From Trichoplax sp. H2 (taxonomy: Eukaryota), in contig NOWV01000146.1 in assembly GCA_003344405.1 (NCBI GenBank), positions 171,667-191,666 on the forward strand: a DNA stretch of 20,000 nt. Reading direction: 5' to 3'. A model generated the notes under the pieces. It did no database searches. It had not been told where the DNA came from and saw only the letters and a list, made by a program, of their open reading frames with translations. Position numbers and translations under genes: made by a program. Shown one piece after another: positions 85-20,000 of this stretch. Within the stretch, counting starts at the first letter, position 1; each line of letters starts with the position of its first letter.

Positions 85-800
85 ATTGAAAGCAAAAGAT
101 GCTTTTTCTTCGCGCTGTTAACTAGGAACCCAAGGCAAAATGTCACTAATCAGAACAAATTAATTAATTATTCAACCCATTCTTATGTCCAATCTTACAG
201 TAAAAATGAACGTCTAATGTCGAACTACTAGTAGGACGTTGGTGAGAAGAAAAGTTTGATTTTTTCTTGGCGCTAGTACTGCACTGTGACTATGCTATAC
301 CTACCATAGCAGCAACTTCAGTAGTTAACTCAAGGCAAAGCCCCTACTGGACTCAACCAATTCTTCTGCCCAATCTTACAGTACAGTAAAAATGAACAGC
401 ATGTCCAACTACACGTTAGTGAGAAAGAAAAGCTTGGCTTTTTCTTGGCGCTAGTACTGCACTCTGACTATGCTACGCCTAGTGAGTAGTGAACAAAAAG
501 CAAAGCCCCAATTGGACTCTACCAATTCTTTCTGTACCTGTCTGTACAGTGTACATTGCGTATGCCCAATCTTACAGTAAAAAGAAGGGACACTTAACCA
601 CGGTGGGGGTGAGAAGAAAAGCTTTTGCTTTTTCTTCGCACTAGTACTGGCACTGTGACTATGCTACGCCAACAATAGCAGGGACTAGTCAACAAAAAAT
701 TTTCCATATCCATTAGCAACCCAAGCCAAAGTCCCAATTAATTCATTATTCAACTTGACAAATTCTTATGTCCAATCTTACATTGAAAAGGACAGAGAAA
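85..800. repeat. Degenerate ~180-205 bp tandem repeat, about 4 copies
   Basis: caatcttaca at 190, 371, 567 and 773; gtgaga(a)gaaaag...tttttctt..gcgctagtactgcactgtgactatgcta recurs. Confidence 0.88.
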
Positions 801-849
801 CACCACTGTCTACTCACTGTACAGTACTGTACAATATACAGTATGTCAT

Positions 850-1165
850 ATACAAGACCGGTATTACGACGCGACTTGGACAGTAAAATGCTTGCAGCGA
901 CCGGACATCAAACAGCGAATGATCGCTTGAACTCCAAACTTGAAACAAATAGAATCATTCAATACTGCAATAAAAAGGAATCACAATACCAAGAGCCAAT
1001 TGCTCAAGGTTGTACTGATCTATCTGCATGGAATTGGAGCCAAATTGAAAGTCCATTTCTTCAAAATGGAAAGACATAATGGAAGGCAATACTCTTGTAG
1101 AGTGGAACATCTTTCAACCATTTTACAGCGCTCGCCGCGCCCCTGGAAGAGTGGTCTTATACAAT
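850..1165 (+). mobile_element. Possible decayed Tc1/mariner transposase C-terminal fragment
   Basis: One frame reads IQD...TVKCLQRPDIKQRMIA*TPNLKQIESF...RNHNTKSQLLKVVL, then SAWN in a shifted frame; loosely resembles QQDN...WPxxSPDLNPIENLW...L...AW. No TIR identified. Confidence 0.3.
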
Positions 1166-2090
1166 TGCAACCCTAGAGGAAGGCTATGGAAAAATCGCGG
1201 AGTTTTACCAAGGGTGGTGAGAAACAGAGGGAAAGTTGGGGGTTGACTAGTCTCTGACTTGTATCTAAGCAATGCAATTATTACAATTGACAACTTTAGC
1301 ATCTTCAACTAAAGGCATCGAAGTGTAGTATAAATACCACGGCGCCGCTCATTTTAGGAAGACTATGGAAAAATCGCGGAGTTTTACCAAGGGTGATGAG
1401 AAACAGAGGGAAAGTTGGGGGTTGACTAGTCTCTGACTTATATCTAAGCAATGCAATTATTACAATTGACAACTTTAGCATCTTAAACTAAAAGCATCGA
1501 AGTGTAGTATAAATACCATGGCGCAGCTCATTTTAGGAAGACTATAGAAAAATTGGACTTCTGGTAAGGGATGGTGAGGAACAGTTGGAAAATTGAGGGT
1601 TGACTAGTCCCTGACCTGTAACTAAGCAATGCAATTACTGCAATTGACAACTTTTGCATCTTAAACTAAAGGCATCGAAGAGTAGTATAAATACCCCGGC
1701 CGGCGCCGCTCATTTGAAGCGAGGGTGGGTGGCATATACTTTACACTAGTGTACACTGTACGGTGCAACCCTTTAGGAAGACTATGCAAAAATCGGAGTT
1801 TCCCCAAGGGGTGGTGAGGAACAGAGGGAAAGTTGGGGCTTGACTAGTCTCTGACCTGTATCTAAGCAATGCAATTATTACAATTGACAACTTTTGCATC
1901 TTAAACTAAAGGCATCGAAGAGTAGTATAAATACCCCCCCCCGGCGCTGCGCATTTTAGGAAGACTATGGAAAAATCGGAATTTCGGTAAGGGGTGGTGT
2001 GCAACTGAGGGAAAATTGAGGGTTGACTAATCTATGGCCTGTAACTAAGCAATGGAACTATTGCAATTGACAACTTTTGCATCTTAAGCT
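1165..2090. repeat. 179-bp tandem repeat, 5 copies, with a ~60-bp interruption after copy 3
   Basis: aggaag(a/g)ctat starts at 1177, 1356, 1535, 1775 and 1958. Confidence 0.95.
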
Positions 2091-3426
2091 AGTAGGAAAT
2101 CTGCTAAATCTCCTTCTCCATCATCATGACTACAGCATTTAGTACAGTACTGTACATTTAGCGTGCAATAGGTGTACAGTAACTCCAGTTATCCGCAGGG
2201 ACCGCGTACACTATATGAAAGACAAATCAACAGGGCAAAGAAAAAGTATAACAGAGCTAATGTACTACTGTATATTGTGCATGAATTTATTTAAAAAGAT
2301 CCATAATCATAATCTAGACAGTTGTAGCATCGTCAGACGCGTAAAAATCACACAACGCATGCATTCACATTCTAAATTTATCTCCAGATAGTAGCTAGTA
2401 CATATCCGTGGGCTGTACTCCTAGTAAACAGCTTGATATATTTAAAACGCAATATTTAGGACTTTTTAAATGATCGTTTATTGGAATATTATCAGATTAT
2501 AGTTTACATATTTAATAAAGGCAAGGTACAGACCGCATAAAATGAGGTATATCTTTAATTGACATCTATCTTACTTCATGACCAGCTATACCTACATTTT
2601 TTTATGGATAGGGTCACATTATTAATAGGATTGGGTAACGTTCAATGTAGATATTGCACAAGCTATAGCTTCTACTCAATACTAATCTATCTTCTTTAAT
2701 TGCTAGATGATATTATATGACATCTTTTCATCATATGGGCTCAAGGTTAATTCTGCCAATTATTTGCAACTTTAATAAAGCCCACTTGGGTAATATAATA
2801 TTCCTTCCTGTGTACACGTCCTAAAAAAGAAATAAAAAAGTTTATCAATAAATACGCTATATTAACTATATATACAATAATCCTGACCGTAGTTATTGTT
2901 ATTGTTAGGCAAGTATAGCTAATAATATATTATTATTAACGACTAGAATACTGCTGGGTCTTGTGCATTATAATATTTTTAGAACGACTAGATTAAACTG
3001 CATCTAATAGTAACTCGCGACAAGTAGAGTACGCGCGTAAACGGATGCTCGACATATGGACTGCAAGAGGACCTACCTACCATTCATTCTAATGTAGCGT
3101 AAAGTAACATTTAAAATCTATTTCAATCCATAAGCAAAAAAAGCAAAATTGTTGGGTCTACTTTAATTTCATCCTTGTTCAATCTTTAATCCCATTAGTA
3201 TTCTTACTATACTGAAACATTGTATCTGGTATCAGGAACATCAAGAAAATATAAAAATAAAAGCAACCCAAATTTGATCCTAATGGTTGATATCAATTAC
3301 AGTATCTATCGTGTAAACTCATACAGCAGAAAGAAAGCTAAATTCTATTTTGAGCACAAAACTAACATTTGTATTCGATCAACTACAGTAGTACAAATCT
3401 TTACCAATAATTTGGCCGGTATAGGC

Positions 3427-4175
3427 TTAGGCTTTCGATTTTAGTATGTTTGAGCTATGATGGAGTTTCTCGGTATTGAATTTTTTATTATAACCATCTC
3501 TTTTCTGCGAAACCGACAATTTATCGTTCCGCTTGGCTGATAAAATGCCTTTGAAATGAGTACTGCCCTTTAATCTTAATTGCGGGTGATAATTGGTTTT
3601 TGATAATTTCGCATTAGAACGAAATTCTCTCTTGAACAAACTCAACCCAGGAATATTTTTATCTTCCTCTTCCTCTTTATGAGAAGTAGCAGTGGGATCG
3701 TGCCTAACATTAAATTCGCTAAATAATGGATTGTGTCTTTCGTTAAACCAACTAATGAGAGGGTCTTCTGACTCTTGTCTTTCCTCAAACCAACTAATTA
3801 AGGGATCTTGCCTTCGTTTCAAATTATTGAAATCTGCGTCTGAAAAGATGTGTCTCTTCTTAAACAGACTAATACCAGTATTAGAACGAGCTTGTCTTTC
3901 ATTAGATAAGCTAATACTAGCACCAGGAGGAGCTTGCCTATCGTTGAATAAGCTAATACCAGGTCCTTGTCTCTCATTAAATAAGCTAATACCAGGTTCT
4001 TGTCTCTCATTAAATAAGCTAATACCAGGTTCTTGTCTCTCATTAAATAAGCTAATACCAGGTTCTTGTCTCTCATTAAATAAGCTAATACCAGAGTCAG
4101 GAGGCGCCTGTCTTTTTTTAAACCAATTTATAATAGGTTCTTGATTGTTCTTGTATACATGACGATCAGTTATCT
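3427..4175 (-). CDS. Gene A exon 2: peptide repeats and C-terminus
   Basis: Open for 749 nt; extends the supplied ORF 3427..3822 upstream in frame to a TAG acceptor. Confidence 0.92.
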
Positions 4176-4444
4176 CTATTACGATGCAGTTAAAAAATAT
4201 TCAATACGAGTATGCAAGTAAATTATAAAGTAATCATATCAGTTGATTTAATCTACGACTAGTTAACTTCTAAATCATCGTTTCACTTAAAAATTGCAAG
4301 GAGCTTTGTCAATGAAGTATGGAGCATCGTTAATTTTTGTTTGCATAGTTATATACGATATATGCAATAGCGTATTGCTTTACCTTTGCATGTTGCGATA
4401 GCATTAAGGCCAATGATGGTAACAACTAATAGACAGATCTTCAT
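3427..4444 (-). CDS. Gene A: LF-type neuropeptide precursor, join(4444-4384, 4175-3427), 269 aa; resembles the placozoan LF prohormone
   Basis: Exon 1 (ATG at 4444) gives MKICLLVVTIIGLNAIATCK and ends G|GTAAAG. A 208-nt phase-1 intron (4383-4176) ends ...GTAATAG|. Spliced protein: MKICLLVVTIIGLNAIATCKEITDRHVYKNNQEPIINWF-KKR-QAPPDSGISLFNE-R-(QEPGISLFNE-R)x3-QGPGISLFND-R-QAPPGASISLSNE-R-QARSNTGISLF-KKR-HIFSDADFNNL-KRR-QDPLISWFEE-R-QESEDPLISWFNE-R-HNPLFSEFNV-R-...NIPGLSLF-KR-...KSKA*. Signal peptide plus repeated Gln-initiated peptides and basic cleavage sites. Family name is from recollection. Confidence 0.92.
3943..4094. repeat. 33-bp coding tandem repeat (QEPGISLFNER units)
   Basis: cttgtctctcattaaataagctaataccaggtt repeated about 4.5 times, nearly perfectly, without spacers. 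Confidence 0.95.
4384..4444 (-). CDS. Gene A exon 1: signal peptide
   Basis: 61 nt, MKICLLVVTIIGLNAIATCK plus 1 nt, basic-hydrophobic-small residue pattern, canonical GT donor, phase matches exon 2. Confidence 0.88.
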
Positions 4445-7400
4445 TTCGCCTAATCTTTCAATAAAAGCGTTATTAATATTGGACTATAAAAATATTTGCG
4501 AAATATGGTTCAAGTTCATACTTTGATAGTAGAGTAGTTACAGGTGAAATTATTTTTTAATCATTTGTTCAGTAAGATCTGTATAATTACACTATTTGCA
4601 GTTCTTAACTTAAAGTACAAGCAAAAGATTAAACAAATAATACTTGATTAATAAATTTACCTTATACACATACATTACATTTTTTTGTATATTAAATACG
4701 CATAAAATACTTATTCCAAAATATTCAAACTTTCTAAGATACGCTAACTTTTTAACAGTTACCTTCTGATAAATCCCTTAATTGGTATTGCTCAACTAAA
4801 CTGCAATATTTAACGAAAAAGTTGCAATTCGCCGCTATATATCTAAAAAGTGAACAAAAGAATTCATTCTTCCTAATCTATTTCTATTTAACTTTATCAG
4901 ACTCCACCTACCCGTACCTAAGTATAATTATGATAAATAGATAAAATAAAATTTTCTTAGCCACAATAGGTCATTTCATACTCTGGCCCAATCTGTCAGT
5001 AAATAAAATATTTCCCTGAAATACTCAACAGTGGCAAAATTAATAAAACCAAAGATCAATAGCAATAAATCTAATTATAACGATGATATGTATTTTATTT
5101 ATTCGCTAAGGCATACTATCCATTATTGTAACAGATAAATAGTAATACTGTGTTGCATCACTATATTTCAATCCTTAAGAAATTAAAAGCCATCTAAAAT
5201 GAAATATAATTAACTTACCTCTTTTGTTATGCTAGATTAATGTATTTGTAAATATAGTTATACTAAATACTGATTATAAGTAACGGATACACTGATCATT
5301 AGATTATATCTATGGACAATAATTTAATTTAATATAATGTTGAATTAATTGCTAAAAATGTTATATTAATTTTAAGGACGTATTTAACACCATAAAATTT
5401 TCAAAGTGAACTTTTCGTTATCAGAGAAGAGGAATGGCAGACTTTGTGTCTGACCATTTTTGACCTAAATTCTATCAAAGTATCTTGCCTAAAGTATTCA
5501 CGTTCAATAGAAACTGTTATAAATAGATTAATAAAGTTATCTATTCCACACTCACTTAATTTCATCATCACGTAAACCACAATTACAATTATTGTTGACC
5601 TTATTTTTAATTGTTTCATAATATCAACAATGGTCTGATTTACCAATATCTTATTATATATCAAACAGATTTATCTTGGATTTATTCATCTGAAAGGTAC
5701 AAAAAAAACTAAGAATCAACTGAAGAATATATAGAAGCTTAGGAAATTAATATTATGATTTACTAGATGCTTAGACAACAACAAAAATGCCTAACGGTAG
5801 CTCTATTTGTCATTATTATTATTGTCTAGAATGCCTAAGCTACTGTGTGTAAATAACTTAATAGAGAGAATGCTATCTTTACAGCAAGATACACAGCTGC
5901 AACTAGACCAATTTAAGGAACGTTATTTTACGCTCTCATTGTATTAATATTATCATGCTTTATTGCGTTTAGGAAGAAACATAGTTGGTAGAAAATGAGG
6001 TTTATATCTATATCCTAAAAAATTTCATCATTTTTCTGTTTATAGGTTAAGGTATATGTAATTATGTTATTAATTTAACCTTTTACTTATACATCACATC
6101 AAATCATTTTGAACAATAACTGTATTATACATGCCTAATAAACAGATTGTGCGAAGAACGCATTTGGAATTCTAAAATCTATATTTAATTATGATGTCAA
6201 AATCTTTTTCTATAGTGCAGTAATAATATATCATGGTTATATAATTTTTATCTGATTATTTAAGATAGAAAATTAATACAAAATGATTTGAAAGTTTAGT
6301 TGAGTTTATCATTACTTAAACCTTTGCATTATTATTCGAAAATTGAGTTTTAACCGTCATAATTAAACGAGTAGTTATAATCAATTTCAAATTTGCTACT
6401 GGCAATGACATAACATAAGTGATTGTAAACAGAAGGAAATTTTTATTTTGATCACAAGCAAGTTCATTTTTTATTACAAAAAAAATCTTAGCGAAAGAGG
6501 TGCAGGTGGATCTATCTTTCATAATTTCAATACTTGATTAAACAAATTAATTTCTGGAATTGTAAAAAGAAAGTTTCTGAAAAATTATTTTGTTTACATC
6601 TTATTGATAATTATTATAATAGAATTATTATTATAGACCACAAAATACATTTTTTTAGCAAGCAGATACTATTGTACTTAATTATATACATAAAGACAGT
6701 ATGATTTCATATTTGCTTCCATTGTCTAAATGGGATGAAAACCAATAAAATTTTCCATATCATATTATAAATATCTGTAAAAATCCACTGAAATAATCAT
6801 AAAGTGTGCCTGCAAAGTCCTGATAATCTCTATAATTATTACCAAGACTACTTGTATTTATTATAATGAAGAACTTAATACATATGTTACCATTCTAGTA
6901 TAAAACGGAACAAGAAAGCTATAAACGCGATAATAAGTAATGTCTGCTGCATATTAACATTTTATCGTTACCGCTAACGGTTAAGTATACAATCGAAATT
7001 TTTAGAAGTAAAATTACCTCCCCCTGGCAATAGTTATAGGATAATCATATTTGAACAGTTACCATAATTGAGCTTACAAATTGTGGAATTATCGGAGTTC
7101 TACTTGTATATCTGTATTGTTGAATCAGACAGGATAATCATATAAGTCAACTGGTTAAGCCTTCAGAAATACCTTAATAAAGCATCTAAGAATAGATATC
7201 GAGCTAAATATCAAAGGTATTAACATACTGTAGTGCAGTCTTTCATTTAACGTTTAGCGGACACGGAAGTATTGCTATTACAAGTCATTGAAATTTCAAC
7301 TAGCATCATAGCGGCATAATGCTTAAATATAGACACTTTTTTGTCTGTAAGGATTAAAGACTTATTGTTAATAAATCCTGTAACAAGATTCAAATATAGC

Positions 7401-10400
7401 TTATAGATTGAAATTAGTAATTCTCTAATGATCATATGGGATAAATATCATAAATAGGTGTGATAGTCAAGCCGCACAAGTATATAATAGAATTCCATTC
7501 TGTTATAATTTGTTTCTTATTTGGGTGAAGTATAGTGATCACATACAATAAAGTATCTCCTTATTTTTAGGCACCATAATCAATAGTTTATGTTTTCGGT
7601 TGTGAACTATTAGACCACCTGCACCCTTTTCGAGCGTAATACCAATATTAACAAATGAAATACTAGAAAAATATGCATTGATTTAACCGCAAATTGCTCA
7701 TTATGAGTCCTTAATAGAACCTTCAATTACTCTTGCTCGCCTGTAATTTAAATGATCTGATGGAAATAAATACAACTAAACTTTCACTACATTTATTACA
7801 ATTTTACTCACCACTTAGTTTTATCAATAAACTATTATCTACTTCGTTATATTTACTATATTTACTTTAAGCAAATTAGCAATTTACGTGTAGAACTTTC
7901 AGTACAATTGTACTATTACTTTGATCGTGATTTGGGATGTGTATATGTCCTCTACAGTACATCTCCACATTCATTTATTTTTTTACTTACCTATCTTTAC
8001 AATGACAACGCCATTAAGGATTTAACGCTAACTAATAAGACGGTAAACAGATAATATACTTTATTATTGGCGTAAGGTACTTCAGTAAAATTGATGGCTG
8101 ATAATCATTTGCTCGCCTTGTTATTTTAGAGTGTAGGAATGACTTTGGAGCATAGCATGTCATGGAGAGCCTATAGTACATATAAATGGAAAGAGGCCTG
8201 TAATTATCAGTGGTTTTTAACTCCCCCACGGAAATAATAATTGTATTCTACATCGATAGTTGAAATCTGCATTCCATTTCAATTTGCAAATTCTTTGCCC
8301 TCATGGTCTATCGTTTAGAATCATGATTCCCTAGCAGTAGAATTACTATGTCTAAAATATTATTTATAGAGTAATTGTAAATTTGGCAGGTGAAACTGAT
8401 TTTATTAGACTCTTATTTACTCATAAGTAGGACTGGATAAAGCAGCTTTATTTTACAATAACGGCAAAAGCAAGTATTCCAACGGAAGTAAACCAACTTC
8501 ACATTGGGAATTTCCGAGAAGTAAAAACATAAATCTTTGTAACCAATTAACGAAATCTCCTAAAAGGATTATAGTATTGTTAGTCATCGAATGTAAGACC
8601 TTCTCTACACTTGCAGTATATTTTTTCGGACTACTATCGTGTCTAGACGAGTCGTTTGTATTGCTATTACCTATTTTTATTTTATTACACAAATCTGATA
8701 TTTAAACTAACCTTTTCATTTTGAAAAGAACGTTCATTAAATTAATTTATTTTCCGCATTGACCCTTGCCCTTATACGAAGAACTTAATGTCATCTCGTC
8801 ATCCTGGCCTCTGGCCCTATAAATGGTTCCAGTTTTAATATCTAGGCTAATGGATTATAATAACCAGTAATTTATTGCCTTGTATTGCTATGTATAAAAT
8901 TAAAAGTAACTAAATTTGTAATCGTTATTGCACACTGCTCTGATCCGTAATAACCTCGTTATCGGTTTACCCTCAGCACTTATTGTACTGTATAATCTGA
9001 TAAAATAATGTGGAATACTCGTATATCCATTAAAAAGTTACACCTTTAATGCCTTCTATTTTATAAGTTTCGGCTTATAACAAGGCCAATTCAATTGCTA
9101 CGGAGAGCTGTAAGATGATTTAGTTAGAATCGAAAATAAAAATATTGTCTATTGCATTTCAGGTTGCTGTCGACAAGTTCTACAAGTTATCTAATCTAAA
9201 TACTCAATTTCATTTCACCTGTTTAAATTCTAAGTAACCCTGTCATTGAAATATATTGCATGCTAATACCGTCACAATAAGAACTCTTATAAAACACCAT
9301 ATCCGATTTCCAATGATTTGCTCATTTTAATTGCTATCAGAATAAACTCAATTAAAATAAATAGTTACAGAAATAGAAGTAAGAAATCAACGAATGGTTG
9401 ATGAATCTATTTAAATAATTTCAGTTCATTAATTCGTGTGATAAAGTCACGTAGGATTTACCTTAGCCATTAAAAACATATTTTGAAGTAATTTACGTTT
9501 ATGAGTTGTTAAAATAATTGCAAAAGGAAATGGAATTTTATTTTACAGGGTAAGAAATCTAGCGTAATGTTGGACCATACATATCATCAATCTTTTTGTA
9601 CGGAATATATTGCTTTATACACGTATCGAGGGAATCACAAAAGGAATCTGTGCTAAGGACCAAGTTATAATCCACAAGTATTTTAACCAATAACAACCCT
9701 CTTACGGTAATACCAAAGTTGAAAATTGATTTTAGTTAAATTTCGTTTCTTTTCTAACTAATAAGCTCATTCTGGATTATAAATACAAGCACCACTTACA
9801 ATACCTACGACTTTTAATATCCTTGCAAAGCACTATTAAATCTACTGCATCGCAGTAAACTTGGAAAATAGAGCTACTACACCGGTCTTGATCCCCTACT
9901 GTGAAAATCTATGATTGTGCTTAAAGGAAGTCAGTGTAAAACAAAATCTAAAAATCTGCAGCAATACCAAATTGTAAGCACAGTTGCAATATCAAACTAT
10001 TTTCTAGAACAAATAATAAGAACTAACGACTCTATTTTCTTTTACTTTATCACATAGATAGGCTGCGCTTAGACCTAGATGTCTATGGCTGCAAATACGA
10101 TACCTCCGACTACAGTTGCGGATATCAATGTCAAATACTACTCCATTAAACTGTCTAGATAATAAACCGGCAAGCAACCTTCTTTAAGACGATCTTTTAC
10201 CTTGCCATGTTATTCAAACTGAAAATAATAAGAAATATAGTGATCTTAACGTCGAAATCTGCAGATGCTACATCTTGACAAATCAGCGGGTAAAAAGTGT
10301 TTCCTTGAAGATATTGCATCTAATAGTCAGCTATTCCTAATTACGTGTAGAACTCGAATTTAGGCGGCTAAGGATTAACGTATGATAGAAAACTCTGTTG

Positions 10401-10667
10401 CATGAGCTAAAAAATTATTACAACATGCATTTCTTTTTCTATGATTTTTATCTACTGTTATGGTACAAAACCTGCTATGTACTCCTACCATAATGTAAAC
10501 GCTGAACGTGGGATTGCTTGAGCAATAACTGCGTAATGAGTGCTACCATCCGCGACGCTATTACTAGCTACAGAATAAACTTTTGCTCATAAACTAGTAT
10601 TTTTTCTTTTAGCAGGAATGAATGCTACAATACGGTATCAATCCATCTCATTAGTTTCATGCTGTTG

Positions 10668-10925
10668 CACAATCTTGTTCTTTATTGTTGTTATTTCTTA
10701 AATAAATTGAAAGAATCGGACTGACCGACATGCTATCAAAATAAAAGACTTGGTGGGCAATGTTAAGCTAACGTGTAGTCTTGTTGTTGTTGTTGTTGTT
10801 TATTGCTGTTATTTCTTAAATAAATTGAAGGAATTTGACCGATCGAAATACTACCAAAATAAATTACTTGATGGGCAATGTTAAGCTAACGTGCAATCTT
10901 GTTGTTTATCGTTGTAATTTTTAAA
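10668..10925. repeat. 118-bp direct repeat (about 2.3 copies) with internal (TTG)n
   Basis: tgggcaatgttaagctaacgtg at 10754 and 10872; ttatttcttaaataaattgaa at 10691 and 10809. Confidence 0.9.
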
Positions 10926-11935
10926 CATATTTTAGCCAGAAAAATAAGACGTGGCATGATGATATGGTAATGTTATTAAAAAAATGTCCGTAAGTGGAAG
11001 CCTGGATCGCCCGAGTCAAATACCTTACGGCTTTGATTGAGAATGTTCGGAAATTAGTTGGATGCTAGGCTGAGCTCAGTATCACTTATTCGCAACTTGG
11101 TTTATACCGATTTTATCACAAATAATAATTAAAATTGGCAATACCTTACCTCATAAACATTTTGCAGTAATAGTTTACTCGACGAGAAATGCACAAAGGT
11201 GAAGATCTTACTAATCAAAACTATTCTTGGGAGAACATGGAAGGCTTTTTTTACACATGGTACCGAACTATAGTTTCCAATCATGTCAGAGCAACATCGT
11301 CTTTAAATATTGCCGACAATATCCTTGATGACAATGATTTACTCATAAACAATTTCTTTATTTTACATTGAATATGATTGTTGTTAAAATGGCACACTGA
11401 GATTCCATAGAAGAATGCAGAAAAAATAGAATCTTTTCTGTAGGAGTCATTTGCATAGCGTAAAGGAAAAGCCTTTCACTCTATTTGTCCTAATGGTGAA
11501 CTGTCCTTTCCTGGCCGAGCTAAGAAAAATGGACATTTCAAAAAGTAAAATTGATCACAATCAAAAAAATTTAGAAGGTTGTTAAACATTATACAATATA
11601 CTAGATAGGATAAATTTTAAAAATTGAATACTGTTACCACACTATGAGCAACGAAAATGCATAACTCGTATCATTTTTAATACTAACACTAAAGGCGAAT
11701 GAATTGCCAATTTGGTAAGTTTTCAACTCTCTAGTTTAAACTAAGAACGACTCATGGAGAAAATTAATCCCTGCACTCTAATTTGCTGCTTAGGGACTCC
11801 TTATCAAAAGCAATTTTCATCGATAAAATTGATAATTTTTACAGTAGCATGGGAGTTTTCCGATGCCTCCATCATGGTTGCATCTGTTTAACTTGCACTT
11901 GGAAATAAAGGGAGTAATAACTGAGACTTTCCGGT

Positions 11936-12010
11936 CTCCCCATTTACTCTCTCTCTCTCTCTCTCCTACTATATAATCCCCGGGGATTAGAGAGAGAAAG
12001 TAGACGGTGG
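11936..12010. repeat. Inverted repeat: perfect 16-bp palindrome flanked by (CT)n and (AG)n arms
   Basis: taatccccggggatta at 11974-11989; (ct)9 at 11947-11964 is complementary to gagagagaaagta on the right. Confidence 0.8.
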
Positions 12011-12202
12011 AAAAAGGATTAATACTTTACTTAAGTAGTTTCTGGTCATAAAGAGAAACCAAAATACGAAAAAATAAATTTTGCAAAAGAACCAAGAATT
12101 GAAACCCGTTTCGTTCTGAAATCAATGTTCTAGATTTTACAAGTGCAGTATTTTGATGGTTAACTTAATTGATGATCCATAGGTCATCAATAATGATTTA
12201 AC

Positions 12203-12610
12203 AATTCACACAAATACTTCAATTTGGATTTTTTTTGAAATCTGCATACTTCCACTTATTCTTATAAAAGATATATCTAAATTTATTCCTAGCCAATTAA
12301 CAAGAGAGAATTCTATAGTAGCTTTAGCGCGATAGTTGTAAACCTATTTCAACAAGGAGAACTATAGCAAACTTTCAGCTTAGAGATGTGCATCACCTTG
12401 TGATCAGGATCCCGACAGAACAGTGAATTCACACAAATCTTTCACTTTGGGCATCGTTTTAAAATCTAAACACTTCCATTAATTCTTAAAACGTCAAGAT
12501 AAAATCCAAATCTATTCCAACATGGTGAGCTGGAGAGAATTCTGTATTAGCTTTAGCACTGCATATGCAAATCGATTCAAACAAAAAGAACCGAAGCCAT
12601 CTTCAGGCTA
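12203..12610. repeat. Diverged direct repeat, period about 223 bp, 2 copies
   Basis: aattcacacaaat at 12203 and 12426; gagagaattct...tagctttagc in both copies. Confidence 0.85.
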
Positions 12611-12859
12611 CTGGATATCAGGACCATTATCATCGGGATTTCTGTAGAACAGCAAACACCACATATGTGTAGAATATCTTAAGCTAGACAACATTTCTTT
12701 TAAAAGTTGGTTTCTTCATCAAGTATGTGAGTTTACTAGAGCTGAGATATCTACAAAGTATTCTTATTACTCAATTTAACGGATAGGCGATGATTAAATA
12801 ATATTCTTTACAAGTCCAAATTGCTAACTCCTATGTTTAAAGCTCACTCTACATTATTT

Positions 12860-13810
12860 AATGTATAGAGACTCGCGAAAGTCTGTTGAGACCGGCTTCC
12901 TCATATGCGAGAAATTCTCCTTGATAATATATCCTATTTAGTTTTCCTCAGCTATTTTTAAATCTTTCTGTTGTTAATATACAATCAATCTCGTGTATTT
13001 AGCCATGAGGATTAGCTCTTTTGCAGAAGTCAGTTCCTTTCTCGATCTAGATTAAATCATTGTAGAGAGACTCGCAAAAGCGTGATTGAGCAAAGAACCC
13101 TGAGATAGTTGACTCTATTTCATGTACGGTCTTCTTGACCTTACTGCTGTAGTATAAATTAAGCCTTATTAATATTGGTAGTAATCCCTTCTAATAAGTA
13201 AAAATTTTAAATGTTTTGACGTTATACGAAGCCTGTATTTGATGAAATATCAATTTACTGCAATTATCCATGAGCTAACTTCGCTGTGTAAGACTACTTA
13301 CAGACCAATTTCTTTCTTGATCAAAATTAATCCATGTACAGAGACTTCCAAAAGTACAATTTGATCAAGAAATTATAAGGTACGAGAAAATGCATGACTG
13401 AGAAATTCCTCTTGGCGATATACGTATTCTATACGGTCTTATTGATATTATTACTGTAGTAAGTCAAGATTTTTTAAACATCATGTTGTGATGCATAGAC
13501 AGAGTTAAGGAAATATCAAGTTAATGTAATTGCCCACGAGCTGGCTTTTCTTTGTAAGACCCTTTGTATAAGACCAGTTGCTCTCTTAACATCTTGCTGC
13601 TAGTCATAGACAGAAATCAATGAAATATCTAGTGCAAATTAGTGCACATTATTCATGAGCTAGCTTCTCTGTAAAAATCTTTTACAGGCTCATTTCTCTC
13701 AATCCAAAGTAATCAGTATAAACAAACTTTCAAAAGTGCGATTTGACCAAAGAAACTTAAGGTACAAGGAATGCCTCCATGACAGTGTATAATCAGTTCC
13801 GTCTTATTGG
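12860..13810. repeat. Diverged repeat cluster, 4-5 partial copies
   Basis: gta.agagact..caaaag-like motif near 12862, 13061, 13335 and 13716; ca(t/c)gagct near 13269, 13536 and 13654. Confidence 0.75.
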
Positions 13811-14291
13811 AAAGTAACTATTTCGTTTAGTAATGATTAATCATAATCCATTCTAGTAAGTAAAGATCGCTAACATCATGTTGTTATACGTAGATTGCAT
13901 TTCACGAGCTTTGCAAAGTCTAGTAATCAAGCAGTCTAAGTAATGCCTGCTCTTTTTGTGAATTGTATCAGAAAGAACGTCCAAGGAGTACAAGTAGAAT
14001 CGATTTACTTGTCGATTTCCATTAGAAAGGCACATACTTACGGAGCACTACTCGATCTCATAAAGTGTTCAGTTGACATGTTCTAAAAGTATTATCATAT
14101 AAGAAATGAACTGTGATCAACTAAACTACAGTACAACAAGGTTATATTTGCTCCGTTTTCAATGTGCTGCCACGTTATGATTAAACAAGGTAAAGTGACT
14201 TTTCATGATATTTCTAGTCCATTTCAGTAACTATGAGTGTAATAAAAGCATTCTTAATTAAGTATCCATTTTTTCAATGCCAACCCTAACC

Positions 14292-14630
14292 TTAACTTTT
14301 ACTTATACTGTGGTTTTAGCCTTTTTTGTATGACATATCTCGGCTTGTAGCAGATACCCATCAAAACTGCCAATTTACTGCTCCATCTTGGCTATGCAAT
14401 TCTTCACACGGAGTCAATAGAAATATGCTTTCTTGAGTTTATTGTAATTAATTACGTGTCACTATAAGTAGTAGTAAGAGTTTTAACTTTTACTTATTCT
14501 AGGCCGTTAGCGTTTTTCCGTACAACATATTGCAGCTTGTAGCTGATACCGATTAAAAAACTGTCAATTTACTGCTAAATCGTAGTTATGTAATTTTTCA
14601 CATGCACTCCATCAAAACATGCTTTCTTAA
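14292..14630. repeat. Diverged direct repeat, period about 191 bp, 2 copies
   Basis: ttaacttttacttat at 14292 and 14483; gcttgtagc.gatacc and caatttactgct in both copies. Confidence 0.88.
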
Positions 14631-14746
14631 TGCTTTCATAGATTACTGGTCAAAAATCGAGTCATTCTACTATTTACTCAATTGTAATATTGCATAGCAA
14701 CTCGAGAAGAAAATATTGCACAACAGGAATACGAGTAAACACTTCT

Positions 14747-14752
14747 TTTATT
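14747..14752 (-). promoter_or_regulatory. Candidate polyadenylation signal of gene B
   Basis: First AATAAA I found on the minus strand downstream of the stop (about 450 nt); weak evidence in AT-rich DNA. Confidence 0.3.
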
Positions 14753-15202
14753 TCATTGGTAATTCTTATATGATCTTATTTCGCTAGAGAGCTAATACGT
14801 AGACGCCTAGTTCAATACATTCACATAGTTTATGGCATCAATTTGTATAACTTGATTATCGTTATTTTCTTCCACTACTATACTTATTGGCATCTGTATG
14901 GTTGCTTTCGCTTAAATAATGACTATAGATCATGACTATATCATTTAAATTTATGTATTACGATTGATAGATTAAGGCTAAAGTATCTACGGAAGATGGA
15001 TAGTTGAGAATAACGTATAAACAACATGACTACCTCAACGATAGACAACTGCAGTAGTAAAGCATGTAGCCAATACGAGATAAAGCTATAGCATTATTAT
15101 CCACACTTGGTCAATCTAACTGGAGATTTTGTTACACATTTGAATTACCATTAACCGTTCAATGGGAAAGGAGGATGTTGGATAATCCTTCGGTTGAGAC
15201 TT

Positions 15203-15337
15203 TCAAGCCATTTTTTCCGATCGACTAGATAAATCACCAAGGAAAATTTTCTTAAATGGGTTAGAGTTAGGTATGTAAGATAGCCTTTTCTGACCTCTTT
15301 TAAAAGGGATAAATCCTTGCTTTTCTGTATCTCTCTG
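15203..15337 (-). CDS. Gene B terminal coding exon (Q)RDTEKQGFIPF-KR-GQ-KR-LSYIPNSNPF-KK-IFLGDLSSRSEKMA*
   Basis: Pyrimidine-rich tract, tandem TAG/CAG acceptor, three dibasic sites, TGA at 15205-15203. Confidence 0.8.
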   Translation of the reverse strand, partial: QRDTEKQGFIPFKRGQKRLSYIPNSNPFKKIFLGDLSSRSEKMA

Positions 15338-18300
15338 CTACAGTGAGGATAAAATAAAGCCATGTTTACATTAAGTAAGCTAGGATTAGCATTTTTGTAA
15401 TGAACTTAAAAATACTGAAGATTTCATCGAATAACTTCTCTATAATATATACCATTCATCTGTAACTAGGTATCACTTATTTATTATCGACATGAGACTT
15501 ACTGAAAACCAAGATACTACATTCTTTGCTTCCGATTTCTCACTATCATCATCTTGCTATCAATAATAATGCATGAAGAAAGAAATTGGTTAACATTAAT
15601 GGCAATCGATCATGATTTTGATACCTATGCTAATTATTCTCTACTATTACAAATTTACAATTAGCAGTTTGCATTAACCATTTTTAACCAGATGTGTACG
15701 AATCGATCAAAAAATGGCAATAACAGTTAATTACGTGATCACAACTCGGGGCTAGGGTTCCTAATTCTAGCTTGTTATTAGTCCATTTTACAAATTTTCT
15801 AGAACAAATTTAAGGTAACTAATGAATCGCTTCAATTTGGGTCTATAAATCCTTGTTTCTACGATGGTTGATGCCAGAAAAGTACAGTAAGAGGTCTACA
15901 GAATTTGCTAATATATGAGTAAACGTAAGTACGATATCGTCAACATTTTTATTAATGCAGATCAAATATATTTGTAATAGATGATTTTCTCTCTTATTAA
16001 ATACAAGAAAGGGTTTTTTCAAAATGCGATGATAACCTCTCCTAAATATTGAAAGTGGTAATATTCCTATCAATCAGTCTTTTTCTCCTACATAGTTACT
16101 TCTTGGAACAACTAGTATATACTATGGAGTATGCCGAATCTTTTAAATATTACTTTACGCCAGATTAATTCAATCTTTTTTAGTCTAAATTATTCCTTCA
16201 ATTTCTAGTATACAAATAAGCTAAAGCACTACTGTACGTATATTCGCATAATTAATAACTCTTTATAACAGATTAAATAGGTTTTAAATTCTTTGCTCTT
16301 TCGTTAAGTACATTAATTGGTCTTTCAAAATCCGATCATAGCCTATCCTAATATTTAAGAGTTTAATATTCCTACAAATCAGTATTGTTCTTCTATAATA
16401 GTTGATCCTTAAAATAGCTAGTTTAAACAAAAAGGACTATGTTGCATCGATTGAACATTCCCTTACAGGAGATAAAATCTGTTACAATCTATCATTTACC
16501 CTTTACTTAAATAGAATCTTACGAGTATCGAAATCAGATAATAGCCTATTCTAAATATTTAACCTTTGTTAATAAGTTTACAAAATTGCTACTTGAGTAT
16601 CACAGAACTGTTAGTATAAGCTATAAACTATGAATTCAATATTTTTTGTGGAAATGAAATCGATCATTTACCCTTTTCTTAAATAGAATCATTGGAATTT
16701 CAGAATCAGATGATGGGCCATCCTAAATATTTAACATTTCGACATATCTGATAAGCGTTTCTCATCAATTATAACGATTCTATAAATTTCTATACTGCAC
16801 TGCAGTATGGCTAATATAAACTAAAAACAGTATGTTGAACATTATCTACTGGAAAGGGAGTTTATATAACCTATCATTTACCCTCTTCCATATAATAATC
16901 GGGCGTTTAGAATCAGCTGATAGGCTATCCTAAATATTTAATATTTCGATATACCACATAAGTTTTTCTCAGCAATCATAACAAGCCTACTAAATTCCTA
17001 CACTAAACCACAGAACGGCAAATATAGAGTAAGAATTATGTATTGAATATTTTCCATCAGAGACTAATCTTTTATAGCCTATCATTTATCCTCTTCTTAA
17101 ATAGGATCATTGGAGTTTTAGAATCAGATGATAGGCTATTCTAAATGTTTAATATTTTGACATGCCTGATGAGCATTTCTTACTAATCATTAACCGCAGA
17201 ACGGCTAATATACTCTTAAACTAAGAACTAAGTAGTAAATATTTTCTATTTGGAGGCTAAATCTTTAATATCCTATCATTTGCTCTATTTTTGAATAGAT
17301 TAATTGAAGTTTTACAATCGGATGATAGCTTATCGTAAATATTTAGGGTTTTGGCATACCGGGTGAGTATTTCTATAAGATCATGTTAAGCCTACGCAAC
17401 TACTACACTAGTATAAAGTGAAAGGCTGTATTTTAGTTTATTGAGAGATCAGATGGCTACTATTTTATACTTGAGTATTTTCCTAAAGTAAACGAATGGG
17501 TTATTAAATTTCGATAATGATTCTATCCTTTAATATCATAAAACTTTGATATGCCATACTATCTCGGTATCCCTTTCTTAGCCTATTTTTTACTAATTAA
17601 AAATTAATTATATACAGAGGTGATAATCATACACGTAAGCGTTTTCGGCAATAAGATTTGTCGGTAGGCTCGAAACGGTTCGTAAAATCATATGATAAAT
17701 TTATAAAACATCTAACTAGTTTAGGAGTTGCTGTAATGAAATTATTAATTTAAATCGTAATGATTTAACTCCTTATCTTAATTTAAAAATAGCCTTGTAA
17801 TACGGGATAGTACACTTTGAATACAGATAGCATTGACGGGACTTATTTTCAAATGCATCATCAGATAATGTAGACCCTATTGCGTGATTTACCTCTTTCT
17901 TGAATAAGGGAGTGTCAGCTTTCTCCGAGAGTTCACCATCTTGATCCTGCGATTTTCGACAAAAATAAAGCTATGTTATTGATGCGAAGCAGTTTTATAA
18001 TCATACTTGGTCAACAAATTGCGATTCTGCGTAAAATGTTATTTCAGTTAATCTGGTTCTCGGTACACAACTTACCTCTTTTTTAAATAAGGGATTGCCA
18101 TAAAGTATAGAATTTCCGTTTTGAGCCTTTTATTAAAGTTTTATGATCATACTTGGTCAACAAATTGCGATTCTGCGTAAAGTGTTATTTCAGTTAATCT
18201 GGTTCTCGGTACACAACTTACCTCTTTTTTAAATAAGGGATTGCCGTAAAGTATAGAATTTCCGTTTTGAGCCTTTTATTAAAGTTTTATGATCATACTT

Positions 18301-19620
18301 GGTCAACAAATTGCGATTCTGCGTAAAATGTTATTTCAGTTAATCTGGTTCTCGGTACACAATTTACCTCTTTTTTAAATAAGGGATGGCCAATATTTGA
18401 GGGATTTTCACTTCGAGCCTTTTAATAATATATTCAAAAGATAGCTATGTCAGCCGTGTAAAATCCTTTATAAAAATTGTTGACTAAATCTTTAAAATGT
18501 AATTTCCTTTTAAAATATAATTACAGAATAATTAAAGCTACTTCTTTCTTAAATAAGAGATTGCCTATTAGTGGGTTATATTTATCCTTTATGAAGATAA
18601 TGATAAAATCGCAATAGAAATTAACTATATAGTAAAGGAGGAATGTCTACAATCGCTCTTGATATTGTAGATATTCAGGCAATATAGTATGTGACATCGT
18701 ACAATGTACGAATGAAGTTATGGCGTACTGGGAAATAAACACGTTTAAATATGATTCGCTATTATCACTGCTATCTTCCAAGTACTGCATTTGCAAGTAG
18801 CTTCATAAGATAGTTTAACAATGCATTCAATTGCAACAGTGTATAGCTCGTGAAATGAATTAAAATAAATGCTTTGAGTAATCAACATCTTTGCGTGTAT
18901 TCAATAAAAACTGCCATTAATCTATTTTATATCCACTTATTATTTATATACTATAACATTAATAAGAAATAGCGTTATGATTCGCTAATAAAAGCAGTAA
19001 AATTTCTATCAAGGTTATTGTTAACTTATATCTTTTCTGAACAAAGCATGCCCTATTTGAGAATCCTATCCATTTGCATTAAGGGTGTAGATAACTTATA
19101 CATTTTAAATAACCCTAAGATACTATACAATTTAGCCGTTAGCATACACAGTACTGTACAGTTGCTATCGAATTTATAGTTAACTTACATCTTTTCTGAA
19201 CAAAGGATACCCATCTTGAGAATCCTACATAAGAGATAACACAATCGTCACTATATGTATATTCTGTTAATTATAATATCGTTAACTATGGAAACTGTTT
19301 AACTATCAGCTCGTATACAATTGCATTAAAGGTGTAGATAACTTATGCTTTTTAAGTAACCCTTAGATACTATACAATTTAGCCGTTAGTATACACAGTA
19401 CAGTTGCTATCAAATTTATAGTTAACTTACATCTTTTCTGAACAAAGCATGTCCTGGTTGAGAATCCTATACAATTACATTAAGGGTGTAGTTAACTTAT
19501 GTTTTTTAAGTAACCCTTAAATGCTATACAATTCAGCCGTTAGCATACACAGTACAGTTACTATCGAATTTATAGTTAACTTACGTCTTTTCTGAACAAA
19601 GCATACCCATCTTGAGAATC
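15203..19620 (-). CDS. Gene B: second LF-type neuropeptide precursor built from one-peptide micro-exons, 5'-partial (about 215 aa in window)
   Basis: Eleven phase-0 AG/GT-bounded micro-exons plus a terminal exon join to DSQDGYALFRKD|DSQPGHALFRKD|DSQDGYPLFRKD|DKYNPLIGNLLFKKE|ARSENPSNIGHPLFKKE|AQNGNSILYGNPLFKKE|AQNGNSILYGNPLFKKE|DQDGELSEKADTPLFKKE|DSLSADSKRPIIIWKR|DGPSSDSEIPMILFKKR|QDDDSEKSEAKNVVSWFS|QRDTEKQGFIPFKRGQKRLSYIPNSNPFKKIFLGDLSSRSEKMA*. Synonymous variation occurs in the LFKKE codons. No signal-peptide exon found in the window. Confidence 0.85.
15503..15556 (-). CDS. Gene B micro-exon QDDDSEKSEAKNVVSWFS
   Basis: ttgatag|54 nt|gtaagt; SWF motif shared with gene A peptides. Confidence 0.8.
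16672..16722 (-). CDS. Gene B micro-exon DGPSSDSEIPMILFKKR
   Basis: atttag|51 nt|gtaaat. Confidence 0.8.
16882..16929 (-). CDS. Gene B micro-exon DSLSADSKRPIIIWKR
   Basis: atttag|48 nt|gtaaat. Confidence 0.75.
17893..17946 (-). CDS. Gene B micro-exon DQDGELSEKADTPLFKKE
   Basis: atcgcag|54 nt|gtaaat. Confidence 0.8.
18076..18126 (-). CDS. Gene B micro-exon AQNGNSILYGNPLFKKE (copy 2)
   Basis: ataaaag|51 nt|gtaagt; differs from copy 1 by one synonymous TAC/TAT change. Confidence 0.75.
18222..18272 (-). CDS. Gene B micro-exon AQNGNSILYGNPLFKKE (copy 1)
   Basis: ataaaag|51 nt|gtaagt. Confidence 0.75.
18368..18418 (-). CDS. Gene B micro-exon ARSENPSNIGHPLFKKE
   Basis: ttaaaag|51 nt|gtaaat. Confidence 0.75.
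18542..18586 (-). CDS. Gene B micro-exon DKYNPLIGNLLFKKE (weaker splice sites)
   Basis: cataaag|45 nt|gtagct; open and phase 0, but AAG acceptor and weak donor. Confidence 0.55.
19030..19065 (-). pseudogene. Dead micro-exon DSQIGHALFRKD
   Basis: Intact acceptor and frame; donor is ATAAGT instead of GTAAGT. Confidence 0.7.
19189..19224 (-). CDS. Gene B micro-exon DSQDGYPLFRKD
   Basis: tatgtag|36 nt|gtaagt. Confidence 0.85.
19431..19466 (-). CDS. Gene B micro-exon DSQPGHALFRKD
   Basis: tgtatag|36 nt|gtaagt. Confidence 0.85.
19585..19620 (-). CDS. Gene B micro-exon DSQDGYALFRKD
   Basis: tatgtag|36 nt|gtaagt. Confidence 0.85.
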
Positions 19621-19793
19621 CTACATAGCAGATAACACAATTATCACTGTATATATATATATACATTTTTTTTCGATTAATTATAATATTGTTAACTACG
19701 GAAATTGTTTAACTATCAGCTGGTGTACAATTGCATTAAGAGCGTAGATAACTTATATTTTTTAAATAGCTATCAAATTTGTAATCAACTTAT

Positions 19794-19828
19794 ATTTTTC
19801 GGAACAAAGCATTCCCTATTTGAGAATC
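19794..19828 (-). pseudogene. Dead micro-exon DSQIGNALFRK
   Basis: 35 nt (1-nt deletion) and ATAAGT donor. Confidence 0.7.
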
Positions 19829-20000
19829 CTACATAGGAGATAACACAATTATCACCTTATATGTTTTTCATTAATTATTTAAATGTATTAGCTAATTTAG
19901 GATGAAAAAAGTTACTGGATAAAGGGAATTGCTACTTTATAAGGATAGTCCATGATTTGATAAATTATACACCGTAAGGCAATATCAAAGCCATGATCAC

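Follow-up and report, generated by a model that had tools for sequence, protein, structure and literature searches.

The minus strand of positions 15000-20000 in a stretch of 20,000 nucleotides from Trichoplax sp. H2 (contig NOWV01000146.1, positions 171,667 to 191,666; hereafter the window) very probably, at roughly 85% by our estimate, carries the 3' part of an LF-peptide preprohormone gene (the LF gene), in which nearly every peptide copy has a micro-exon of its own and the repeats stem from the duplication of exon-containing units. The LF-peptide locus is a real, expressed and already named peptide gene, and its exon-per-peptide layout, the skipping of its cassette exons and the birth and death of its exon units are well supported.

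The translation of the exon at 19585-19620 contains DSQDGYALF, which agrees with the published LF peptide minus its leading D. This residue is the last codon of a preceding RKD-type exon, and a B-type-to-A-type junction occurs in all four of the runs described below. The available text of Varoqueaux et al. 2018 (bioRxiv 10.1101/360925) lists the synthetic peptides used on Trichoplax, with DDSQDGYALF under the name "LF" next to "LFNE" (QEPGISLFNE). This list bears out two claims of a preliminary description of the window, namely that the locus encodes a secreted-peptide precursor and that DDSQDGYALF-type sequences are placozoan LF peptides. According to the same text, both LF and LFNE cause rotation and flattening when applied to Trichoplax, the effect of LF (rotation and extreme flattening) being among the strongest reported for such peptides. 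The LF-peptide proneuropeptide of Trichoplax adhaerens was itself predicted by Nikitin 2015, as cited in later work. In our literature search, the LF string occurred in the Varoqueaux et al. 2018 preprint only, and six other peptide strings predicted from the LF gene were not found.

Scanning 15000-20000 on the minus strand for stretches that are free of stops, bounded by AG..GT and a whole number of codons long, we found nine micro-exons of 36-54 nt, located in three repeat arrays and encoding one peptide each (Table 1). All the exons of this kind given in the preliminary description were thus recovered independently, with the endings in LF or IW plus a dibasic site that it had read in them, and none appears in the list of open reading frames (ORFs) of at least 60 amino acids (aa), as it had stated. 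The acceptors of the nine micro-exons are TAG, AAG or CAG, and the donors are GTAAGT or GTAAAT. Eight of them end in LF followed by RK, KK or KKR, seven of these adding D or E (M4 stops at KKR), while the ninth, M3, ends in IW followed by KR. Each of the nine holds a single peptide copy, although M3 also has an internal KR. The exon end falls just past the cleavage site: seven micro-exons close on D or E, which is the first residue of the next copy, and M3 and M4 close on the dibasic site. A length of 36-54 nt that is a multiple of 3 is shared by 10 of the 12 exons in the window, the exceptions being exon R (43 nt) and the last exon. The combination of several copies, dibasic sites and acidic residues follows the processing rule of the cnidarian and placozoan type (available text of PMC8638164 and of a 2022 review by the same group). 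A prohormone convertase would cut after the dibasic sites and a carboxypeptidase would trim the basic residues, so that the processed products would be peptides ending in LF, IW or PF.

The frequency at which such a pattern arises by chance was estimated by simulating the 5-kb region 500 times with a second-order Markov model. The pattern (AG; a stop-free stretch of 30-63 nt, divisible by 3; GTAA; and an ending of the hydrophobic-aromatic-dibasic type) has 10 matches on the minus strand of the window, one nested in another and all within 16.6-19.7 kb, and no match on the plus strand; the simulations gave a mean of 0.014 and a maximum of 2. A relaxed pattern lacking the peptide motif did not exceed the simulated maximum (16 observed; simulated mean 7.1, maximum 16), which indicates that it is the peptide ending that carries the signal. 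The micro-exon copies are duplicates and hence not independent; still, this ending is common to three exon families of unrelated nucleotide sequence.

The occurrence of splicing was ascertained with the assembled contigs of four public runs from four studies (X5, X6, X7 and X10). Joints are written below as the two window positions brought together, separated by a slash; their tallies are minima, taken among the joints listed, and boundaries are good to the 1-3 letters that fit on either side. Skipping joints fall at the predicted boundaries and, among the joints listed, display CT..AC on the plus strand, i.e. GT..AG on the minus strand. Junctions of the kind by which the preliminary description had proposed to check that the micro-exons are linked were found in the contigs of all four runs, and its view that each symmetric micro-exon carries one peptide holds in the spliced contigs. 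Two minor joints have other ends: 15223/15295 (AC..AC, X5) and 18418/19586 (CT..CG, X10). The joints 15224/15295, 15337/15503, 15556/17893, 18417/19584 and 19465/19584 are present in all four runs; 16721/16881, 16928/17892 and 18417/19188 in three (X5, X6 and X7); and 15556/16672 (X5 and X7), 17945/18075 (X5 and X10), 17945/18367 and 18271/18367 (both X6 and X7) in two. The introns between the exons of the LF gene measure 95-1115 nt. In X5, the summed contig depth is 250-8700 in exon-containing bins vs 3-23 in pure-intron bins, with a like contrast in the other runs; by this crude measure, exons are covered about 100-1000 times more deeply than introns. Coverage of individual junctions is uneven. 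The N1/D junction is suggestive; the D-N3 joint (17945/18075) has 30 letters on its shorter side in X10; the N2-N1 joint (18271/18367) has only 21, with 9-letter loose ends at 18221; and the B-to-A2 junction is seen only as an X6 joint from 19212 to 19430 with letters between, plus a loose end in X7.

The contigs also revise the 3' end of the gene. A 70-nt intron (15225-15294), present in all four runs, lies inside what the preliminary description took for the last exon and shifts the frame, so that its two downstream exons become three (Q, R and the last exon). Its 215-aa prohormone was not reproduced, the RNA-supported reading frame within the window being 194 aa, and its lower limit, 15203, turns out to be the stop of the unspliced frame (the true stop is given in Table 1). 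The last-exon contigs run over the low end of 15000-20000. The terminal ...PLN-G would be amidated, as the terminal Gly would allow. Variant letters at 15227, 15290 and 15292, within the 70-nt intron, occur in X5 and X6 contigs at depths of 73-760 and belong to unspliced or allelic forms.

Alternative splicing alters the peptide composition of the LF product, as observed at the level of contigs, in keeping with the possibility raised by the preliminary description: junctions that include exons and junctions that skip them are found together in single runs. The transcripts either contain the M3+M4 pair (joints D/M3, M3/M4 and M4/Q) or skip it as a block (D/Q). Skipping (15556/17893) was found in all four runs and the inclusion joints in three (X5, X6 and X7). 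The contig depths of M4/Q vs D/Q are 1394.8 vs 2978.6 in X5 and 402.1 vs 808.6 in X7; in X6, the inclusion joints D/M3 and M3/M4 have a depth of 18.7 vs 213.4 for D/Q, and X10 has D/Q only. This case is not one of alignment ambiguity, because D and M4 have different sequences at their 3' ends. Similarly, exon A is joined directly to N1 in all four runs (18417/19584), which bypasses B and A2, whereas A2 is joined to N1 in three of the four (18417/19188), and the two joints co-occur in X5, X6 and X7. The two junctions differ at the last exon base (C vs T) and within 25-30 letters. With symmetric cassette exons, duplication, loss or skipping would change the number or kind of peptides while leaving the frame intact, so that the peptide mixture would be set both by evolution, through exon birth and death, and by splicing.

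The arrays in which the micro-exons lie consist of whole exon-plus-intron units, as revealed by Tandem Repeats Finder and BLAST; the exon duplication proposed earlier was thus confirmed and extended to the flanking intron. Tandem Repeats Finder reported two of the three arrays only (17991-18392 and 19314-19623), the third (16.0-17.4 kb), whose units are about 70% alike, being detected by BLAST. The N units are 146 bp long, N2 and N3 being 98.6% identical and N1 86.5% over 126 nt; the A/B double unit is 396 bp long with 85-89% identity. Judged by their similarity, the three arrays are shown to come from tandem unit duplications of evidently differing ages (about 70% identity among M units, 85-94% among A/B units and 98.6% for N2/N3). 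The N repeat begins inside exon N1 (array end at 18392), hence the duplication breakpoints ignored exon borders. The first 90 nt of the intron downstream of an exon are as similar between units as the exon, or more so (N1 vs N2: exon 41/47 identical, intron 88/90; A vs B: exon 30/36, intron 83/90), and the differences between units are concentrated in the N-terminal, variable half of the peptide. The pairs are few, and this distribution fits either peptide diversification or patchy homogenisation. The arrays contain at least eight unused exon-equivalents, and spliced contigs join across seven of these eight (Table 1); in two of them, a donor changed from GT to AT is all that sets them apart from live copies. 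For the remaining one (19793-19828), the bin is at intron-level depth, which alone is not proof of disuse, and no contig joins across it within the window. In a separate observation, low-depth X5 and X7 contigs have the same 14 replacing letters within 19148-19769, which likely reflects an insertion or deletion, in the intron of the dead A-type unit, relative to the sequenced strains.

Table 1. Exons, unused exon copies and arrays of the LF gene, and the neighbouring LFNE gene (window positions; joints as in the text)
Feature	Position	Strand	Description	Product or evidence
Micro-exon A	19585-19620	minus	36 nt, phase 0-0, DSQDGYALFRKD; donor GTAAGT	DSQDGYALF + RK + D
Micro-exon B	19431-19466	minus	36 nt, DSQPGHALFRKD	DSQPGHALF + RK + D; skipped in some transcripts
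Micro-exon A2	19189-19224	minus	36 nt, DSQDGYPLFRKD	DSQDGYPLF + RK + D; skipped in some transcripts
Micro-exon N1	18368-18418	minus	51 nt, ARSENPSNIGHPLFKKE	ARSENPSNIGHPLF + KK + E
Micro-exon N2	18222-18272	minus	51 nt, AQNGNSILYGNPLFKKE	AQNGNSILYGNPLF + KK + E
Micro-exon N3	18076-18126	minus	51 nt, AQNGNSILYGNPLFKKE	Peptide identical to that of N2
Micro-exon D	17893-17946	minus	54 nt, DQDGELSEKADTPLFKKE	DQDGELSEKADTPLF + KK + E
Cassette micro-exon M3	16882-16929	minus	48 nt, DSLSADSKRPIIIWKR	DSLSADS-KR-PIIIW + KR
Cassette micro-exon M4	16672-16722	minus	51 nt, DGPSSDSEIPMILFKKR	DGPSSDSEIPMILF + KKR
Exon Q	15503-15556	minus	54 nt, QDDDSEKSEAKNVVSWFS, acidic spacer	15337/15503 in 4/4 runs
Exon R	15295-15337	minus	43 nt, not symmetric, QRDTEKQGFIPF + KR + first base of split codon	15337/15503 and 15224/15295 in 4/4 runs
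Last exon	15000-15224	minus	DRKKWLESLNRRIIQHPPFPLNG after split codon; stop 15151-15153	3' untranslated region past 15000
M array	15990-17334	minus	Seven ~210-bp units, 66-82% identical to reference unit	Live: M3, M4; dead: five
Dead A-type copy	19793-19828	minus	1-nt deletion, donor lost	Alignment
Dead B-type copy	19030-19065	minus	Frame DSQIGHALFRKD intact, acceptor kept, donor AT for GT	18417/19188 joins across
Silent N-type copy	18542-18586	minus	Frame DKYNPLIGNLLFKKE open, weak donor GTAGCT	18417/19188 joins across
Dead M-type copy	17090-17140	minus	Open frame and acceptor, donor AT for GT	16928/17892 joins across
Dead M-type copy	16500-16550	minus	In-frame TAA	15556/16672 joins across
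Decayed M-type copies	~17284-17334, 16297-16347, 15990-16041	minus		Joined across by 16928/17892 and 15556/16672
LFNE precursor gene (TRIADDRAFT_51274)	~3427-4176, plus signal-peptide exon 4385-4444	minus		Protein match, E 7.5e-162

The following points weigh against our interpretation of the locus. First, the signal peptide and the start codon lie outside the window, beyond position 20000, and the upstream exon is glimpsed only as a loose end at 19621 (30 letters in X5 and X10, 19 in X6); in X5 and X10, the contig entering exon A from upstream has 161-186 further letters, of which 30 were read. Second, the loose end, once reverse-complemented, reads ...GYPLFKKED, a further LF copy with codons unlike those of A2, but this frame joins exon A with two extra bases, i.e. 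2 nt out of register with the LF frame, and in the frame that does lead on to DSQ..., a stop lies five codons upstream. Third, a joint that goes back from 19619 to 19430 (190 back) occurs in all four runs and is not predicted by the exon order of the window. Fourth, the RNA evidence consists of contigs, not reads, from runs of which X10 is recorded as RNA and the RNA status of X5, X6 and X7 is guessed; with contigs as the sole data, deletion haplotypes or copy-number variants could mimic some of the skipping. Fifth, each junction in the N array is anchored by 20-21 letters, a stretch almost the same in N1, N2 and N3. Sixth, neither the spliced nor the unspliced C-terminus of the LF product was matched in two protein collections: the 70-aa unspliced frame, which shares the true last 24 residues, had no match at E <= 10 among 20 "longer" and one "near" candidate proteins, and the unspliced 44-aa last exon of the preliminary description had none at E <= 0.001 among 1.84 billion representative proteins.

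Regarding the 5' end, neither strand of the window contains the motif of the loose end, in versions from 26 nt to as short as 12 nt. The joint that goes back has the depth of the A/B contig and connects the 3' end of a B-type exon to the start of an A-type one, which suggests extra A/B copies upstream or a copy-number difference between strains. The simplest reading is that further A- and B-type exons exist upstream of position 20000 and were placed on their look-alikes in the window; it leaves the 2-nt offset unexplained. As to the missing matches, the neighbouring LFNE protein is present in the collections whereas the LF C-terminus is not; the queries were short and the evidence is weak, but it suggests that the LF gene was missed or mis-built by automatic annotation.

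Three other explanations were considered. The differences between isoforms might reflect exon copy-number differences between strains or haplotypes, or near-identical exons collapsed or misplaced during k-mer assembly and alignment. The joint that goes back and the short N-array matches, common to N1, N2 and N3, are what this explanation would lead one to expect; the arrays are recent tandem repeats, hence prone to unequal crossing-over, and rearranged forms of the A/B array do appear in low-depth contigs (19395 to 19769 in X5 and 19148 to 19769 in X7, both with an identical stretch of 14 letters in between). We nevertheless regard it as improbable, for three reasons. First, the M cassette is unambiguous: X5 and X7 each contain both 15556/17893 and 15556/16672, whose shorter sides measure 28-29 letters. 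Second, low-depth contigs of X5 cover the M region as it stands in the window. Third, the A-to-N1 and A2-to-N1 junctions can be told apart by their last exon base (C vs T) and within 25-30 letters.

It is far harder to believe that the repeats are non-coding, satellite-like DNA, in which the AG..GT-bounded stretches are a by-product and the spliced contigs derive from a non-coding or non-productive transcript. Such DNA would be consistent with the upstream exon being out of register with exon A, with the lack of a database protein matching the C-terminus, and with introns that are conserved just downstream of the exons as much as the exons or more. Against this, three unrelated exon families keep the hydrophobic-F/W + dibasic + D/E ending over differing nucleotides; GYPLF-KK is encoded in the upstream loose end by codons other than those of A2, the outcome expected if selection acts on the peptide; the depth of exons runs into hundreds to thousands; and the peptide predicted from the LF frame alters the behaviour of Trichoplax when applied (bioRxiv 10.1101/360925, available text). 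The least credible proposal, that the locus is read in two frames, a +1 frame entered from the upstream ...GYPLFKKED giving a second set of peptides, is favoured by the register of that exon and by a +1 frame that stays open for about 105 codons of the spliced sequence (from exon A to M4, or to Q in the skipped form), but we rejected it because this openness is expected by chance (the frame had no stop in 54% of 5000 synonymous resamplings that kept the amino-acid sequence and local codon usage) and the +1 peptides have no repeated conserved core beyond the product of A-rich dibasic codons.

Some 11 kb downstream of the LF gene, the same strand carries the LFNE precursor gene. It agrees with TRIADDRAFT_51274 of T. 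adhaerens at 248 of 249 exon-2 residues, the one difference being K for R, and at all 20 residues of the signal peptide, which places the window in T. adhaerens or a very close lineage. Like the LF gene, it encodes LF-type copies, then P-[IL]-I-x-W(F) peptides and then an acidic spacer. Unlike the LF gene, which has an intron after almost every copy, it holds all of its copies as in-frame repeats in one long exon of about 750 nt ending at 3430, where 33-bp in-frame tandem repeats (3933-4094) encode copies of QEPGISLFNER. In Smith-Waterman comparisons controlled with 300 residue shuffles, which is a lenient control for repetitive proteins, the spliced LF product aligned collinearly with P0002, a second LFNE-like protein from placozoans (score 86, z 8.65), and weakly with TRIADDRAFT_51274 (score 60, z 3.2). 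From this similarity, LF and LFNE are probably paralogues with opposite modes of copy multiplication. A tentative extension, to which we give a small but real chance, is that introns were gained between the copies of an LFNE-like, single-exon ancestor and that the units then multiplied, yielding a peptide mixture tunable by splicing, possibly per cell type. Most exon junctions of the LF gene are AG/G-type sites located just past the cleavage site. If this scenario were true, the LF locus would be a natural model for intron gain via tandem duplication and for how a repertoire of peptides was controlled combinatorially before the advent of neurons.

Between the two peptide genes (4600-15000), no stop-free stretch exceeds 94 aa and nothing is coding-like, but micro-exon genes of other kinds would escape such a reading. 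Two further tandem repeats were noted in the window, neither of which had a match in the scan for the micro-exon pattern: a 179-bp repeat at 1177-1700 (2.9 copies, 90% matches), richer in G+C than its surroundings, and a 118-bp repeat at 10675-10932 (2 copies, 80-86% matches) that contains a short run of TTG.

Turning to known systems, we found no description in the literature of a placozoan peptide gene with one peptide per exon. The word "exon" does not occur in the Varoqueaux et al. 2018 preprint (bioRxiv 10.1101/360925), and it is used once, for another gene, in the available text of the 2022 review of Cnidaria and Placozoa by the Grimmelikhuijzen group; in the Trichoplax neuropeptide-precursor literature, a microexon is mentioned, among the matches listed, for a mitochondrial gene only. 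The same design has nevertheless been published for Hydra: according to the available text of Koch, Hauser and Grimmelikhuijzen 2021 (PMC8638164), the GRFamide preprohormone-C gene has ten exons, seven of which hold a single peptide copy each; an exon closes with the opening residues of the copy that follows, and alternative splicing varies the composition. The suggestion of the preliminary description that the architecture may be undescribed consequently stands for placozoans, for which no description was found, and falls for the design as such. As far as that account goes, the two genes share the exon-per-peptide design and a like splicing logic, Hydra belonging to a sister phylum. Their peptides are unrelated (LF vs GRFamide), and nothing suggests a common descent of the designs; moreover, the available text on Hydra mentions neither arrays of dead copies nor homologous introns, unlike what we report for the LF gene. 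The LF gene is therefore not without precedent, in view of this published parallel: it is a placozoan case of the exon-per-peptide design already published for Hydra. The recurrence of this design suggests either convergence or an old habit of cnidarians and placozoans.

Two other groups of genes are comparable in part. The vertebrate and mollusc genes for proglucagon, preprotachykinin, Xenopus caerulein and Lymnaea FMRFamide, with one hormone per exon, have exon-delimited peptide units, with exon duplication and alternative splicing; genes of the proglucagon type mostly have larger and far fewer exons, which are not near-identical exon-plus-intron arrays as in the LF gene. The micro-exon genes (MEGs) of schistosomes have symmetric exons, and their products are varied by exon skipping. 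According to the available text of PMC10526429, MEGs are strings of very short exons (3-81 bp) with secreted products. The LF gene resembles them in having most of its coding sequence in symmetric exons of <= 81 bp, a likeness of mechanism only: MEG proteins are not multi-copy prohormones, and MEG introns reach 5 kb vs the much shorter introns reported above.

Placozoans have no neurons, and their behaviour is coordinated by secreted peptides. If every LF-type peptide has an exon of its own that splicing can leave out, a single gene can release various peptide mixtures. Unit duplication and donor loss can likewise enlarge or reduce the LF repertoire without frameshift, and both are seen in its live and dead copies. 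ORF-based reading does not reveal such genes, nor apparently does automatic annotation, so that the peptide catalogues of early-branching animals may miss similar genes.

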